The position numbers and the translations under genes are program-made. The notes beneath the pieces are model-generated. The model searched no databases, was not told the DNA's origin, and saw only the letters and a program-made list of their open reading frames with translations. From positions 390,414,001 through 390,478,000 of the forward strand of contig OZ024740.1 in the NCBI GenBank assembly GCA_964016885.1: DNA of 64,000 bases, read 5' to 3'. Below, in pieces: positions 2,926 through 46,823 of this stretch (positions are counted from its first letter, which is position 1; each line of letters begins with the position of its first letter). The stretch is from Eledone cirrhosa (lineage: Eukaryota).

Positions 2926-3058
2926 CACCCTCCACCCTCCCCTTAGCCCACCTTACCACGATGACAAATTTCACCCCAAAGCCACCTATTGACCTATTTC
3001 AACAGACCTTGCAAAAATTCAAAAAAATTGTAAATATTCCTCACCCAGTACACCCTGA

Positions 3059-3535
3059 GATGTTCAACATACATGTTTAGTGTAATGTAGAGAGACATTC
3101 AACATACATGTTTAGTGTAATGTAGAGAGACGTTCAATATACATGTTTAGTAAAATGTAGAGAGACGTTCAATATACATGTTTAGTGTAATGTAGAGAGA
3201 TGTTCAGTATACATGTTTAGTGTAATATAGAGAGACGTTCAATATACATGTTTAGTGTAATATAGAGAGACGTTCAATATACATGTTTAGTGTAATGTAG
3301 AGAGACGTTCAATATACATGTTTAGTGTAATGTAGAGAGACGTTCAATATACATGTTTAGTAAAATGTAGAGAGACGTTCAATATACATGTTTAGTGTAA
3401 TGTAGAGAGATGTTCAGTATACATGTTTAGTAAAATGTAGAGAGACGTTCAATATACATGTTTAGTGTAATGTAGAGAGATGTTCAGTATACATGTTTAG
3501 TGTAATGTAGAGAGATGTTCAGTATACATGTTCAG
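3059..3535. repeat. 35-bp minisatellite, about 13 copies
   Basis: Unit GTTCAATATACATGTTTAGTGTAATGTAGAGAGAC (e.g. starts at 3132 and 3167). Confidence 0.95.
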
Positions 3536-3657
3536 TTTAAAGGCGTGTCAATCAAGAATGAGTACTAACTCCTAGACACGAGAGTCATCCTGGAAGATTT
3601 GACAACTTGATCCCCGAATATAATTCCCATTTTTACTACTTTTATATCAAAATATGC

Positions 3658-11628: not shown

Positions 11629-11726
11629 CGATATAAAACTCACAAATGCATTGACGTATCTGCTGTGTTAGAGCGAAAAACCAAATCCAAATTATATATA
11701 TATATATATTTATATATATACATAAA

Positions 11727-12861
<1,135 letters not shown>

Positions 12862-35783: not shown

Positions 35784-37309
35784 AAAAGTGTGTGGAAAGA
35801 GAGTTCCAAGGGTGTGTAGGGGAGTGGTGGAGAGACGTATAGAAAAAAGGGGGTGAGAGGAAACGGTACAAATGAAATTAAATATAAAAGCATGATAAAA
35901 ATAAAAATAAAAATACACATGATGTAAAACAGGTGGTGGAAGGGTGTGGGCGTGTAGGGGTGATGGCGGGTGGAGTGGGGAGAGGGAGGCGGGGTGTCGG
36001 AGCGGGGACGGCTGAAGGTGGTGTGTGTGTGTAGGTGTACGTGTGTGTGTGTATGTGAAAGTAAGAGTTGGGGGAAGAACGGGGTTGCATGTTCAGGAAG
36101 AGGTGTGTGTGGGGTGGGGTGTAGGTCGGAGTGTGTGTGCGTGTGTGAATAGAGGGGTGGGGGGAGAGGATTCCGGAGGCTGAATGTGTAAATATGTGGT
36201 GGTACGCACGTGTGTGTGTGGTGTTTATGCGTGTTGTGGATGTAGGTGGCATGTGGGGAAAAAAAATTTGTTTTGGGTGTATGTCAGTGGGTGAGTCCTT
36301 AAGGTAGTTCCGTAGACGATGTGGTGGAATGCTGAGTATTATCCTTGGGATGTGGTGGATTCTAGGGATCGATGTTCACATATGTGTAATCCGTGAAGAG
36401 ATTGGTCGGAAGAGGGGAGATGTGGGGTGCGCGCGCAACAAGAAGTGGTCAGAGGGTCAAGGCAGGAGGAGGGTTGTGTGTCTGTGTGTGCGGGGAGGTG
36501 GTCAGAGATAAGGGCATAGCAGCAGTAGGGTAGAATGGTAAGTGAAGAAAGTCGGTGTGTCAGTGTGTGCGGAGGTGCGGTGGACAGGGGAGAGGATGGG
36601 TAGGTGTGAAAGTTGGAGTAAGGAGGGGGGGTGTGTGTATTAGTAGAGGTGTTAGTGGGATGTGTGTGTGTGTGAGAAAGGGTGTGGGTGGAGCGGGGAG
36701 AGAAGGGTGTGGGGGCCGATGGAGGGAGTGTAGTGTACTGGTGTGTGTGTGCGTGTTTGGATGAGTGTGTGTGTGGTGAAGGGGGTGTTAGTGGGTGTTA
36801 GTAAACTGGAGGTGGAGAAAGGGTTGAATGCGAGTGTGAGTGGGGGTCAGTGGTGGTAGGGTGTGTAGAGTGGGTGGTGTAAGAGGGTGTGTGTGTTCGT
36901 GTGCGTAGGGTTGGAGGGTGTTAGTGATGTTAGTTGCGTGTAGAGTGGGTGGTGTAAGTGGGTGTGTGTGTTCGTGTGCTTGGGGTCGGGGGTGTTAGTG
37001 ATGTTAGTTGCGGGGTGGTGGGGTGGATGTGTGGGGGTGAGGGTTAGTGGTGGTAGTAGGGTGTGTGTTTAGTGTGAGCGCATGTATATATGTACCGGTG
37101 GGTGTGCGCGTGTGATAAGGAGGGGGGGAGAAGAAGGGAGGGTTGTTAGTATGTTAGTTGGGGAAGGGTGGTCGGGTGTGGGGTGGAGGTGTTAGTATTG
37201 TTAGTTGTGAGGTGGGCGGTGAAAAGGAGGGGTGTGTTAGTGGTGTTAGTGGGGGATATGTGTGGGGGGAGGGGGGCGGTCGAAGGCTAAAGGAATAAGG
37301 GTGGGGAGT

Positions 37310-37675
37310 TCAGGCCGGGGGGAGTGTGGGTCTGTAGGGTGAAGATGGCTCGTTGTTCGACCCTGAGGAGAGTGGCGGGTGTTCCGCGGCATTGGAGTAG
37401 GCCACAGACTGTGAGGTGGTGTGCGGAATGTCCAGGGGCACCAAAGTGGCGGGCGATGGGGGAACTACCACCGAGACGAATATATCGGAGGTGTTCAGTA
37501 AACCTGTCCGCCAGGCGACGTCCAGTCTGTCCGACGAAGTCCGTAAACTAGGTTGGAGGAGGTGCAGCGGAAGGCATGCCGGACAGAGAGAGAGTGGCCG
37601 TTGGGACCCTGGAAGGTGGTGGTGTTGGTGATGTGGGGACAGGTGTTGCAGCGGGGCCTGGAACAGGGAAGGAAA
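37310..37675 (-). pseudogene. Penelope-type GIY-YIG endonuclease remnant, frameshifted and deleted
   Basis: PCSRPRCNTCPHI...FRCTSSNLVYG, then in another frame FVGQTGRRLADRFTEHLRYIRLGGSSPIARHF...EQRAIFTLQTHTPPGLN. Confidence 0.85.
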
Positions 37676-37739: not shown

Positions 37740-38893
<1,154 letters not shown>

Positions 38894-39864: not shown

Positions 39865-40275
39865 TAACATTCTCGGTATTTTTCTATATATTTACCCCAT
39901 ATTGTTTTACTTATTGTTTCGACTTCCTCCCCCTCCCTAGTATACTTCCTTGACTTCCTGCCCTGCTGTAGTTGGCACTATCAACGCACGACTGGGTTTC
40001 CTCCACCCCCTCTTCCTTTTTCTTCTACTGGCAGGTTCAACTACCCCCCCCCCCCCCCTTCCACAAATTGCCATGATAGAATTATGTGTCTCAACAACAA
40101 ACTTTTGACCAATCCTTGTGACAATCACTTTTACCATATATGGAATTACCCCCTGAGAAGCTCGGCTATTCATATAACAGGATAAACATTTTCATTTAGT
40201 CCAGAATTAGCCGTCGAAACGGCTTGAGCTCAGCCGTCGGGGTCCTACTCGTTCCTATATATATATATATATATA

Positions 40276-43200
40276 TTAGAAAGATCGAGTATCGAAAAAT
40301 CGGCGCACGAGTTAACGAAAAACGAAATCCGATATGAGCGGCAGAGGGCTCAATAATTCAGATGAATCAGAGCTATAACTATCGTTAAAATACCGTCACA
40401 TATAGAACAAGTCTACAATCAACCATACGATTTAAAATCGATAAAGGAAGATTCGGGCCAAACAGATAAAAAATATCAATAAAACAATACGTCAATAATT
40501 TAAATGAATGTAAAATCATACCCGGACCCACTAGAAAGGTGTTAAATCTAGCTTCATGGGTTTCTGTAAATCCTTAGACAGTACTCTATCAGCTCACATA
40601 TAAATATAAAAGCCTACTAGAATAAGTGGAATGGAGTTTACGTTGTCAACGAGTTTTATCCTGGCGGCAAAGGAGTCAACTAGCGGTGAAAAACGCACAT
40701 GGCATTAGACAAGGGAGATGACCCCTATATCCGCGAAAATAATTCGAGTGAATGTGGAAATACACATATCGAATTAGAGTGCTCAATAGACATGTTAAAA
40801 TAAAACAAAAGCTATTCATCACTCAATAGAATCGACAAAATATGAGCAATAAAATTAACTGGTGGATAGCTATGTCCAGAGCTAAATATATTAGAAAGAT
40901 CGAGTATCGAAAAATCGGCGCACGAGTTAACGAAAAACGAAATCCGATATGAGCGGCAGAGGGCTCAATAATTCAGATGAATCAGAGCTATAACTATCGT
41001 TAAAATACCGTCACATATAGAACAAGTCTACAATCAACCATACGATTTAAAATCGATAAAGGAAGATTCGGGCCAAACAGATAAAAAATATCAATAAAAC
41101 AATACGTCAATAATTTAAATGAATGTAAAATCATACCCGGACCCACTAGAAAGGTGTTAAATCTAGCTTCATGGGTTTCTGTAAATCCTTAGACAGTACT
41201 CTATCAGCTCACATATAAATATAAAAGCCTACTAGAATAAGTGGAATGGAGTTTACGTTGTCAACGAGTTTTATCCTGGCGGCAAAGGAGTCAACTAGCG
41301 GTGAAAAACGCACATGGCATTAGACAAGGGAGATGACCCCTATATCCGCGAAAATAATTCGAGTGAATGTGGAAATACACATATCGAATTAGAGTGCTCA
41401 ATAGACATGTTAAAATAAAACAAAAGCTATTCATCACTCAATAGAATCGACAAAATATGAGCAATAAAATTAACTGGTGGATAGCTATGTCCAGAGCTAA
41501 ATATATTAGAAAGATCGAGTATCGAAAAATCGGCGCACGAGTTAACGAAAAACGAAATCCGATATGAGCGGCAGAGGGCTCAATAATTCAGATGAATCAG
41601 AGCTATAACTATCGTTAAAATACCGTCACATATAGAACAAGTCTACAATCAACCATACGGTTTAAAATCGATAAAGGAAGATTCGGGCCAAACAGATAAA
41701 AAATATCAATAAAACAATACGTCAATAATTTAAATGAATGTAAAATCATACCCGGACCCACTAGAAAGGTGTTAAATCTAGCTTCATGGGTTTCTGTAAA
41801 TCCTTAGACAGTACTCTATCAGCTCACATATAAATATAAAAGCCTACTAGAATAAGTGGAATGGAGTTTACGTTGTCAACGAGTTTTATCCTGGCGGCAA
41901 AGGAGTCAACTAGCGGTGAAAAACGCACATGGCATTAGACAAGGGAGATGACCCCTATATCCGCGAAAATAATTCGAGTGAATGTGGAAATACACATATC
42001 GAATTAGAGTGCTCAATAGACATGTTAAAATAAAACAAAAGCTATTCATCACTCAATAGAATCGACAAAATATGAGCAATAAAATTAACTGGTGGATAGC
42101 TATGTCCAGAGCTAAATATATTAGAAAGATCGAGTATCGAAAAATCGGCGCACGAGTTAACGAAAAACGAAATCCGATATGAGCGGCAGAGGGCTCAATA
42201 ATTCAGATGAATCAGAGCTATAACTATCGTTAAAATACCGTCACATATAGAACAAGTCTACAATCAACCATACGATTTAAAATCGATAAAGGAAGATTCG
42301 GGCCAAACAGATAAAAAATATCAATAAAACAATACGTCAATAATTTAAATGAATGTAAAATCATACCCGGACCCACTAGAAAGGTGTTAAATCTAGCTTC
42401 ATGGGTTTCTGTAAATCCTTAGACAGTACTCTATCAGCTCACATATAAATATAAAAGCCTACTAGAATAAGTGGAATGGAGTTTACGTTGTCAACGAGTT
42501 TTATCCTGGCGGCAAAGGAGTCAACTAGCGGTGAAAAACGCACATGGCATTAGACAAGGGAGATGACCCCTATATCCGCGAAAATAATTCGAGTGAATGT
42601 GGAAATACACATATCGAATTAGAGTGCTCAATAGACATGTTAAAATAAAACAAAAGCTATTCATCACTCAATAGAATCGACAAAATATGAGCAATAAAAT
42701 TAACTGGTGGATAGCTATGTCCAGAGCTAAATATATTAGAAAGATCGAGTATCGAAAAATCGGCGCACGAGTTAACGAAAAACGAAATCCGATATGAGCG
42801 GCAGAGGGCTCAATAATTCAGATGAATCAGAGCTATAACTATCGTTAAAATACCGTCACATATAGAACAAGTCTACAATCAACCATACGATTTAAAATCG
42901 ATAAAGGAAGATTCGGGCCAAACAGATAAAAAATATCAATAAAACAATACGTCAATAATTTAAATGAATGTAAAATCATACCCGGACCCACTAGAAAGGT
43001 GTTAAATCTAGCTTCATGGGTTTCTGTAAATCCTTAGACAGTACTCTATCAGCTCACATATAAATATAAAAGCCTACTAGAATAAGTGGAATGGAGTTTA
43101 CGTTGTCAACGAGTTTTATCCTGGCGGCAAAGGAGTCAACTAGCGGTGAAAAACGCACATGGCATTAGACAAGGGAGATGACCCCTATATCCGCGAAAAT

Positions 43201-45231
43201 AATTCGAGTGAATGTGGAAATACACATATCGAATTAGAGTGCTCAATAGACATGTTAAAATAAAACAAAAGCTATTCATCACTCAATAGAATCGACAAAA
43301 TATGAGCAATAAAATTAACTGGTGGATAGCTATGTCCAGAGCTAAATATATTAGAAAGATCGAGTATCGAAAAATCGGCGCACGAGTTAACGAAAAACGA
43401 AATCCGATATGAGCGGCAGAGGGCTCAATAATTCAGATGAATCAGAGCTATAACTATCGTTAAAATACCGTCACATATAGAACAAGTCTACAATCAACCA
43501 TACGATTTAAAATCGATAAAGGAAGATTCGGGCCAAACAGATAAAAAATATCAATAAAACAATACGTCAATAATTTAAATGAATGTAAAATCATACCCGG
43601 ACCCACTAGAAAGGTGTTAAATCTAGCTTCATGGGTTTCTGTAAATCCTTAGACAGTACTCTATCAGCTCACATATAAATATAAAAGCCTACTAGAATAA
43701 GTGGAATGGAGTTTACGTTGTCAACGAGTTTTATCCTGGCGGCAAAGGAGTCAACTAGCGGTGAAAAACGCACATGGCATTAGACAAGGGAGATGACCCC
43801 TATATCCGCGAAAATAATTCGAGTGAATGTGGAAATACACATATCGAATTAGAGTGCTCAATAGACATGTTAAAATAAAACAAAAGCTATTCATCACTCA
43901 ATAGAATCGACAAAATATGAGCAATAAAATTAACTGGTGGATAGCTATGTCCAGAGCTAAATATATTAGAAAGATCGAGTATCGAAAAATCGGCGCACGA
44001 GTTAACGAAAAACGAAATCCGATATGAGCGGCAGAGGGCTCAATAATTCAGATGAATCAGAGCTATAACTATCGTTAAAATACCGTCACATATAGAACAA
44101 GTCTACAATCAACCATACGATTTAAAATCGATAAAGGAAGATTCGGGCCAAACAGATAAAAAATATCAATAAAACAATACGTCAATAATTTAAATGAATG
44201 TAAAATCATACCCGGACCCACTAGAAAGGTGTTAAATCTAGCTTCATGGGTTTCTGTAAATCCTTAGACAGTACTCTATCAGCTCACATATAAATATAAA
44301 AGCCTACTAGAATAAGTGGAATGGAGTTTACGTTGTCAACGAGTTTTATCCTGGCGGCAAAGGAGTCAACTAGCGGTGAAAAACGCACATGGCATTAGAC
44401 AAGGGAGATGACCCCTATATCCGCGAAAATAATTCGAGTGAATGTGGAAATACACATATCGAATTAGAGTGCTCAATAGACATGTTAAAATAAAACAAAA
44501 GCTATTCATCACTCAATAGAATCGACAAAATATGAGCAATAAAATTAACTGGTGGATAGCTATGTCCAGAGCTAAATATATTAGAAAGATCGAGTATCGA
44601 AAAATCGGCGCACGAGTTAACGAAAAACGAAATCCGATATGAGCGGCAGAGGGCTCAATAATTCAGATGAATCAGAGCTATAACTATCGTTAAAATACCG
44701 TCACATATAGAACAAGTCTACAATCAACCATACGATTTAAAATCGATAAAGGAAGATTCGGGCCAAACAGATAAAAAATATCAATAAAACAATACGTCAA
44801 TAATTTAAATGAATGTAAAATCATACCCGGACCCACTAGAAAGGTGTTAAATCTAGCTTCATGGGTTTCTGTAAATCCTTAGACAGTACTCTATCAGCTC
44901 ACATATAAATATAAAAGCCTACTAGAATAAGTGGAATGGAGTTTACGTTGTCAACGAGTTTTATCCTGGCGGCAAAGGAGTCAACTAGCGGTGAAAAACG
45001 CACATGGCATTAGACAAGGGAGATGACCCCTATATCCGCGAAAATAATTCGAGTGAATGTGGAAATACACATATCGAATTAGAGTGCTCAATAGACATGT
45101 TAAAATAAAACAAAAGCTATTCATCACTCAATAGAATCGACAAAATATGAGCAATAAAATTAACTGGTGGATAGCTATGTCCAGAGCTAAATATATTAGA
45201 AAGATCGAGTATCGAAAAATCGGCGCACGAG

Positions 45232-45234
<3 letters not shown>
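40276..45234 (-). repeat. tandem array of 8 full 615-bp units plus a ~39-bp partial unit, retrozyme-like
   Basis: Unit starts at 40276, 40891, 41506, 42121, 42736, 43351, 43966, 44581 and 45196. Units are nearly identical (one A->G noticed at 41660). (TA)n on both sides. Confidence 0.97.
40520..40654 (-). ncRNA. variant hammerhead ribozyme (U3-A8 core, extended stem II), repeated every 615 bp through 44825-44959
   Basis: Minus strand: ACTCG TTGACAA C GTAAA(C)TCC [59 nt] GGATTTAC A GAA ACCCA..CTAGA..TCTAG TGGGT C^CGGGT. Confidence 0.65.
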
Positions 45235-45263
<29 letters not shown>

Positions 45264-45540: not shown

Positions 45541-45809
45541 AACGGCGGTTTTCTGCATTTTCCGTCTACCAAATTATTGGTCATCCTCAGGCTGTAGTTG
45601 AAGTGCTGCATTGTAGCATTGAACCCGAAACCACGTGTTTGCGCCTCTGTGTTTGTCTCTCTCTCTCTCTCTCTGTCTCTCTCACTCTCTCTCTCTCTCT
45701 CTCTATGTATATATATATATATGTATATATATGTATTTCATTCATAATGTCGGTCTAAAACAACAGGTGTAACATTGTCAACATTCCACACCTTCCAATT
45801 ATTTCTAAT

Positions 45810-46314: not shown

Positions 46315-46490
46315 CTGGCAGCATCGGTAGAGCGCCAGACACCATCTTTTGCAGCATAGTTATGGCCCTTTGCGTTCTGAGTTCAAATGCGCCGAGGTTA
46401 ACTTTGCCTTTCATCCTTACGAGGTCGATAAAATAAAGTACCAGTGGTGCACTGGGGTAATCGCTGGCCTTGTGCCAGAAGTAGCAACTC
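46315..46490 (+). mobile_element. tRNA-derived SINE
   Basis: Family consensus. Confidence 0.85.
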
Positions 46491-46823
46491 TATATTATCC
46501 TACATATCCTTTCTTCATCTAAGACAATAATGTGCGATTTGAGGGAGATTTGACTGTTGTTTCTAGCAGATCAAGTGACAACATAGAGGTTCCTCACTCA
46601 GTTGCTAAATTACAATAAAATAAATATGCTACATTATCTCACTCAACTCACAAATCGCAGATGATTAGTACACACACACACATACACATACACACACATA
46701 CACACACATATACAGACTCATATACACATATGCACACTCACATAAACATGTATCATATGTATAGATATTCGTGTGTATATGTACACCCACCCACACATGC
46801 ATATCATATCACATATATATTTA

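Follow-up and report, generated by a model that had tools for sequence, protein, structure and literature searches.

The minus strand of a 64,000-nucleotide stretch of Eledone cirrhosa DNA, referred to here as the window, carries a sequence that resembles a hammerhead ribozyme with an unusual core. This raises two questions: whether the sequence is a real ribozyme, and what kind of element it belongs to. The initial annotation had described one hammerhead with a UUGACAA core and a long extension of stem II, and every coordinate that it gave for the elements of the motif was confirmed on the minus strand. The parts of the motif are as follows.

40520..40654, minus strand: type I hammerhead fold, copy 8 of an array, from coordinates, minimum free energy (MFE) folding and comparative pairing
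40654-40650, minus strand: 5' strand of stem I, ACUCG, with pairs kept in 99.3% of cells
40649-40643, minus strand: core UUGACAA, read as U3 U4 G5 A6 C7 A8 A9
40642, minus strand: extra C after A9
40641-40633, minus strand: 5' strand of stem II, GUAAACUCC
40632-40574, minus strand: 59-nt insert within stem II (the hairpin arm)
40573-40566, minus strand: 3' strand of stem II, GGAUUUAC
40565, minus strand: extra A preceding G12
40565..40642, minus strand: the extra C and extra A, enclosing stem II with its 59-nt hairpin arm
40564-40561, minus strand: GAAA, read as G12 A13 A14 A15.1
Within 40525..40564, minus strand: stem III, made of ACCC/GGGU, a 5-nt bulge and GCUAG/CUAGU
40527-40525, minus strand: GUC triplet, ending in U16.1 and C17, with the predicted cut between 40525 and 40524
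40520-40524, minus strand: 3' strand of stem I, CGGGU

All three stems were present in the MFE fold of 40510-40665. The energy of this fold was ordinary (z -0.70; 47 of 200 shuffles were equally good), and the fold of the arm had a z of -2.1. Stem I, which has two wobbles among its five pairs, had a pairing probability of 0.30 in the window copy and below 0.1 in 21 of 32 representatives, and it was unformed in the predicted fold of the circularized unit. One detail of the annotation had to be corrected. The fifth pair of stem III, given as A-U, is actually G(40552)·U(40530), and among 29 relatives, 19 have G-U here and 10 have G-C.

A relaxed type I descriptor was designed after the motif was known, and it allowed C or U at position 3, G or A at position 8, the extra nucleotides and a long stem II. 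It matched 0 of 3,000 dinucleotide shuffles of the repeat unit, its only matches in the window were the eight array copies, and 53 of 87 natural variants passed it. The annotation had also predicted that standard searches would miss the motif, and this was the case with Rfam at both thresholds used: there were zero matches in the whole window at the gathering threshold, and none of the eight weak matches obtained between 36000 and 41600 at E ≤ 10 was a hammerhead.

As for the larger element, the annotation had the fold right but missed that the motif occurs in eight copies at 615-nt spacing, in a retrozyme array with the following features.

40277..45234, minus strand: tandem array with 8.06 copies of a non-coding 615-nt unit, 36% GC
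41135..44959, minus strand: seven further identical hammerhead copies, with stem I starting at 41269, 41884, 42499, 43114, 43729, 44344 and 44959
40277..40324, minus strand: conserved segment at the 3' terminus, which is the fixed end of the insertions and the putative priming site, lying about 245 nt beyond the cut
40256..40276: (TA)n run bordering the array on its 3' side, common to the array and a neighboring Penelope-like copy
45233..45262: (TA)n run bordering the array on its 5' side

The units are identical except for one base, and a complete type I hammerhead lies in 8/8 of them, arranged head to tail. There was no ORF of at least 120 aa in the array, and coding potential of the unit was rejected since the longest ATG ORF on the circularized unit is 47 aa. 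The 3' half of the motif had 2,908 exact matches in the 3.0-Gb assembly, compared to 0 for the control. Head-to-tail units with a hammerhead, the non-coding sequence, a GC content below 50% and many dispersed copies are all features of retrozymes. There are no fixed long terminal repeats, as the terminal redundancy varies with the 5' end. By these features, the 615-nt element is a non-LTR retrozyme with a variant hammerhead, whose expression, cleavage and circular RNA are predicted.

Next, conservation of the fold was examined in natural variants. The 497 redundant matches in the fetched loci yielded 87 distinct near variants, with 18 dropped because their 5' half was absent. Among the 87, position 7 took all four bases (33 with U, 24 with A, 21 with G and 9 with C), and positions 3, 5, 6 and 9 were invariant (U3 and A9 in 87/87). 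U4 G5 A6, A9, G12 A13 A14 A15.1 and U16.1 H17 were conserved around a free N7, with deviations in a few decayed single copies. A position 7 that is free between invariant neighbors is the pattern of a hammerhead. In an alignment of 29 sequences, made of the window copy and 28 of the 32 representatives (three truncated flanks and one sequence identical to the window were left out), pairing of the named structure reached 96.4%. Changes on both sides of a pair were confined to the stem II arm, where four pairs showed them, which supports the long stem II with a hairpin insert that had been proposed. RNAalifold recovered stems I and III and the arm from the near subfamilies and preferred a small alternative hairpin over proximal stem II.

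A far subfamily at 69.5% identity kept the three-way junction, and its changes in stem II pairs decided the case for proximal stem II. When this subfamily was included in a hand-picked set of 30 sequences, 99.3% of 553 cells were paired and 33 cells were changed on both sides, where cells count related sequences and not independent events. Four of the five pairs of proximal stem II changed on both sides in this set. None of 500 shuffles paired as highly, and slid controls reached 26-41%. Stems I and III had almost no changes on both sides; their variation was one-sided or absent, and in stem I it was mostly an exchange between wobble and Watson-Crick pairs on one side. The three helices surround the core with stem I open, as seen from the 99.3% pairing and the MFE fold. 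The conserved fold, the N7 pattern and the stem II changes on both sides support the hammerhead reading, and this comparison of sequences identifies the motif as a conserved type I hammerhead fold and not a chance match. The conserved internal loops of the arm are candidates for a tertiary contact between stem I and stem II. A 209-nt contig from another public run spans the whole motif with three differences, including C to A at 40642.

The 3-8 pair of the window copy is U-A and Watson-Crick, and the annotation had treated it as a maintained compensatory pair. The variants contradicted this. With U3 fixed, 48 of the 87 near variants had A8 and 39 had G8, and in the far subfamily A8 was found in 31/31 and C3 in 27/31 variants, the latter giving C3·A8. 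Within the youngest subfamily, U3·G8 was present in 193 genomic copies, often in whole arrays, and these copies came from at least 17 loci among the matches listed, one of which had 26 consecutive units. Lineages with U3·G8 and with C3·A8 have been amplified, and U3-A8 is not fixed. Since the single states U3C and A8G occur as natural amplified forms, they may keep activity.

The canonical C3-G8 core was searched for in the motif context throughout the genome, giving 19 matches compared to 1 for the control. One was a near-family copy with a broken GAAA (L260), one carried a deletion, two were chance-like and the remaining 15 had a downstream GAAA. In these 15, the GAAA lay 75-104 nt downstream with A or G before it (A·A in 9, A·G in 3 and C·A in 3), and the first stem II pair was G-C (12) or G-U (3), with its 5' side fixed by the search pattern. 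At least 12 of 14 junction pairs were scored by 9 of the 19 matches and by 5 of 400 shuffled controls. Three matches were similar to the far subfamily by BLAST, six scored with a covariance model built here, and about 11 of the 16 fetched loci ended, by eye, in (TA)n at a similar distance. There was no second full copy within 10 kb of the 16 fetched loci. All lineages share an extra A or C behind A9 and an extra purine ahead of G12, followed by G-C and a stem II arm of 75-100 nt. Because the distant C3-G8 families share the register and the extra nucleotides, the register of the annotation is right and the hammerhead architecture is old.

The same families bear on whether the structure is real and has a different catalytic register, with either a two-nucleotide position 7 and an invariant A8 or the CUGAUAGA of the arm as the core. 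We find this highly unlikely. With two nucleotides at position 7, all 87 near variants would have U3-A8, but A9 would then be a C in the youngest, most amplified subfamily, and the distant families read CUGANGA in the register used here. The CUGAU of the arm is conserved in the near subfamilies; CUGAUAGA was nevertheless rejected as an alternative core since the arm motif is base-paired and its AGA is lost in older subfamilies.

The C·A that had been noted at the base of stem II is indeed not a Watson-Crick pair, but it is a recent form of a conserved A·A that precedes an invariant G-C. The A·A form is the commoner one, with A in 77/87 variants, and the first Watson-Crick pair beyond the C·A or A·A is G-C in 30/30 sequences. 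Stem II does not start directly at 10.1-11.1, as C·A or A·A comes before the G-C. The better reading is that C·A and A·A are two extra nucleotides flanking a kept pair that resembles G10.1-C11.1. Mismatches at 10.1-11.1, including U-U, are described for other natural hammerheads (PMC3088659), so the base of stem II marks a variant and does not exclude the class. Hammerheads with U3-A8 also occur naturally (Perreault et al. 2011; PMC3088659), and about 1,300 such motifs are described in Penelope-like elements of Schistosoma (Cervera and de la Pena 2014; PMC4209133). When a type III hammerhead was scanned for pairwise mutations, the only change reported to rescue positions 3 and 8 was the swap of C-G to G-C (PMC9901934), which suggests that cores with U-A, U·G or C·A may cleave slowly. 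We found no description of the combination of 3-8 and stem II departures in open-access text, although supplementary hammerhead lists, including 'half-core' motifs with 35-50 nt spacers, may hold similar cases; the extra purine before G12 was likewise not found described in open-access text.

The ends of the insertions were then compared. The 3' junction of the array end had 920 exact matches for two young subfamilies and 0 for the control. Among loci chosen independently of the junction, 13/13 ended at one point followed by (TA)n, and in a broader set of such loci 87/90 terminal stretches ran into (TA)n at a point 228-263 nt beyond the cut. Another 70 stretches continued into the next unit. 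The 5' ends were spread over unit positions 1-564 (67 ends), and the three at position 1 are partly due to BLAST splitting at the unit boundary. Insertion sizes ranged from 47 nt to 16 or more units and up to 26 units, and some copies, 1.04-2.4 units long, had a short terminal redundancy. Whole arrays could be uniform for a single variant, such as the array of 26 consecutive U3·G8 units. Judged by these ends, the insertions have the polarity of an element whose hammerhead-sense strand is reverse-transcribed by target priming from a single internal site. Insertions longer than about 250 nt span the cut site, and the template was therefore re-ligated or uncut and not a cleaved linear monomer. 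Of 26 loci selected for a start at the cut, 10 were true junctions, giving ten insertions that begin precisely there. There was no clear excess of 5' ends at the cut: two were found there in a neighbor-position control with about 20 loci over 30 positions, counted by eye among the first 100 of 1,241 overlapping matches (293 Mb of C1), and one locus was found there in the unselected set. Head-to-head inversions of the retrozyme were seen in one fetched locus only, and they are common in the neighboring Penelope-like family.

A variant restricted to 4-5 units of a 13-unit array means that DNA-level expansion also occurs. A satellite-like repeat spread by DNA-level duplication, with the hammerhead as a vestige of an ancestral retroelement, could leave subsets of units that share variants and arrays that are nearly identical internally. 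We consider this unlikely as the overall origin, because the fixed 3' end, the random 5' ends, the strict (TA)n target and the hundreds of loci are marks of reverse transcription, and covariation continues between subfamilies.

The array shares its 3' (TA)n with an element on the opposite strand.

39866..40257, plus strand: 3' end of a Hydra-clade Penelope-like element, truncated on its 5' side and lying tail to tail with the array
40148-40243, plus strand: type I hammerhead fold of this Penelope-like copy, with the core CUGAGAA at 40153

The hammerhead of this neighbor family has long stems II and III without the extra nucleotides. Its core was CUGAGAA (C3·A8) in 27/29 and UUGAGAA in 1/29 sequences, and the genome had 2,402 first-look candidates. 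Copies of the family occur as inverted truncated pairs, have two 3' ends and are inserted in (TA)n. The ORF contains RW, DKT, CxCX5C (CNCPDGSIC), CxxC (CNLC) and CxH (CKH) motifs. The signatures described for the Hydra clade are an RWK-like motif, DKT, a CxCX5C linker and CxxC with CxH around E and N of the endonuclease, and Hydra-clade elements insert into (TA)n (Craig et al. 2021; PMC8557442). By its motifs and its (TA)n target, the neighbor family reads as a Hydra-clade Penelope-like family, and an assignment to Neptune was replaced by Hydra on the signature motifs. Pfam and PDB searches with one copy of the family (L292) gave zero matches, and among atlas neighbors RVT_1 and GIY-YIG were found on some members only. 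A second Penelope-like family has an open ORF of 1,097 aa (L289:1213-4503) that ends near (TA)n; the label 'Naiad-like' was rejected for it since the endonuclease is C-terminal. Other pieces of this kind were seen in the window. Short inverted 5'-truncated pairs of the neighbor family, with two 3' ends, lie in (TA)n at 11720-11938, 12290-12510 and 12650-12843. A GIY-YIG endonuclease fragment at 38050-38319 on the plus strand (Pfam E 2e-4) has 62% identity to the C-terminus of the 1,097-aa ORF, and an 84-aa open stretch at 37296-37547 on the minus strand, with zero Pfam matches, looks by eye like a Penelope-type GIY-YIG end.

No homology was found between two retrozyme units and eight loci of the two Penelope-like families, including their pLTRs. 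Likewise, no unit was fused to a Penelope-like ORF in the fetched loci, where the neighbors were 0.6-1.2 kb off or separated by (TA)n. The retrozyme and the neighbor family have the same target and the same insertion polarity, and a Hydra-clade element is the likeliest candidate for the mobilizer of the retrozyme. For PAc, a Poseidon element of the anole, it was demonstrated that AT-rich targets are nicked and that reverse transcription starts internally, downstream of the hammerhead; the PAc hammerhead is described as protein-dependent and as not required when insertion is assayed in vitro (Frangieh et al. 2024; PMC11167929).

Taken together, we favor the reading that the motif is a real, slow ribozyme and that its monomers circularize and are copied round into (TA)n, likely by a Penelope-like reverse transcriptase; we put this at roughly 60%. 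The observed part of it is the tandem anatomy, the conserved fold, the fixed 3' end with variable 5' ends, the (TA)n target and the insertions of more than one unit. In this sequence of events, the units would be transcribed, and the hammerhead in each of them would likely self-cleave after GUC, probably slowly, to release 615-nt monomers. The monomers may then be ligated into circles, by analogy with the retrozymes of coral, mussel and axolotl; circles were demonstrated for other animal retrozymes (Cervera and de la Pena 2020; PMC7229834). A Penelope-like reverse transcriptase would likely copy the retrozyme RNA into nicked (TA)n, starting from a single internal priming site that lies about 245 nt beyond the cut. 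Copying that runs round the circle and stops at random would give products from 47 nt to many units.

The same element and helper could also work without a circle, if an uncut multimer served as the template and a weak or protein-assisted hammerhead only trimmed 5' ends or bound protein. The amplification of all three non-canonical 3-8 states fits this alternative, as does the single canonical C3-G8 of the near family, which has a broken GAAA (L260), and the dispensability of cleavage for PAc insertion in vitro, as described for that system (PMC11167929), points the same way. We regard it as the main rival, though clearly less likely, since monomer-plus copies and arrays of 16-26 units would require equally long uncut source transcripts, and since the core and the junction are kept over at least 30% divergence, which suggests selection on catalysis. 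The cut site itself speaks on both sides, as 10 insertions begin exactly there but 5' ends are not clearly enriched. The 3-8 rescue scan of another hammerhead and the weak predicted stem I speak against strong activity. Other points against the preferred reading of a slow, circularizing ribozyme are the inactivity of most Xenopus retrozymes, of which 8 of 9 assayed were reported without cleavage (Li et al. 2026; bioRxiv 10.64898/2026.07.22.740005), the alternative hairpin preferred by RNAalifold, the scarcity of two-sided changes in stems I and III, the absence of homology to the eight Penelope-like loci and the rarity of inversions.

A more far-reaching version of the preferred reading is possible, and we offer it tentatively. 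The motif may be an old hammerhead subtype, defined by the extra nucleotides, the 75-100 nt arm and the long stem III, in which any pyrimidine-purine combination at 3-8 works. Slow cleavage may have been selected so that circles survive as templates, and the insertions may record internally primed rolling-circle retrotransposition by a Hydra-clade enzyme.

The element was compared with known systems as far as these are described in the cited texts. The metazoan non-LTR retrozymes (PMC7229834; bioRxiv 10.64898/2026.07.22.740005) likewise have non-coding, low-GC tandem units with one type I hammerhead each, are present in thousands of copies and co-occur with Penelope-like elements. The 615-nt unit is inside their reported range of 51-972 bp and above the typical 150-450 bp. 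In contrast to these elements as described, the retrozyme here lacks C3-G8 in its core and has extra nucleotides flanking stem II on either side, a 78-nt stem II arm, a long stem III, a strict (TA)n target and a single fixed internal 3' end, and pLTR homology was not found in the eight loci of two Penelope-like families. The natural U3-A8 hammerheads (PMC3088659, PMC4209133) share U3-A8 and an unpaired nucleotide after A9. They differ, as described there, from the present lineage, in which U3·G8, C3·A8 and C3-G8 also occur, a second extra purine comes before G12 and stems II and III are long and not minimal. Hydra-clade elements (PMC8557442) and PAc (PMC11167929) are similar in their (TA)n or AT-rich targets, 5' truncation, tandem copies and a fixed internal start of reverse transcription downstream of the hammerhead. 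Compared to the accounts of those elements, the retrozyme has no ORF, has a single 3' end instead of two and is rarely inverted. The start of reverse transcription lies about 245 nt past the cut here; the corresponding distance is about 20 nt for the local Hydra family and about 90 nt for PAc (PMC11167929).

In nature, this one ribozyme thus occurs with each of the four pyrimidine-purine states at 3-8, every one of them in a lineage that spread, and the textbook requirement for a Watson-Crick 3-8 pair becomes testable in a natural scaffold. This class of hammerhead is missed by Rfam and by CUGANGA descriptors with short spacers, so animal retrozymes are probably undercounted. Together, the single fixed 3' end, the random 5' ends and the lengths of several units make an unusually clear footprint for the proposed Penelope-like copying of retrozyme RNA, and this footprint points to a putative priming site and a candidate enzyme.

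Several other repeats were seen in the window and elsewhere in the genome. Loci L254-L272 (for example, L267, L270 and L271) hold 600-700 nt families that end in (TA)n, with a canonical C3-G8, the same extra nucleotides and long arms. A (TA)n-flanked tandem array with a period of 310 nt lies at L289:5140-6500 (C1, about 36.042-36.043 Mb); its minus strand has a canonical CUGAUGA ... GAAA hammerhead half, and it is probably a second retrozyme family. Within the window, a look-alike of the minimal Penelope-type hammerhead, with CUGAAGA, a short hairpin and GAAA, is at 38596-38625 on the plus strand, and a degenerate CUGAGGA ... GGAAA look-alike is at 45545-45640 on the minus strand between two (TA)n runs. 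Minisatellites of 36 nt and 35 nt occupy 2344-2925 and 3057-3540, respectively. A dispersed, SINE-like repeat of about 180 nt is present at 46316-46499 and in at least 15 other places in the window, at 75-91% identity.
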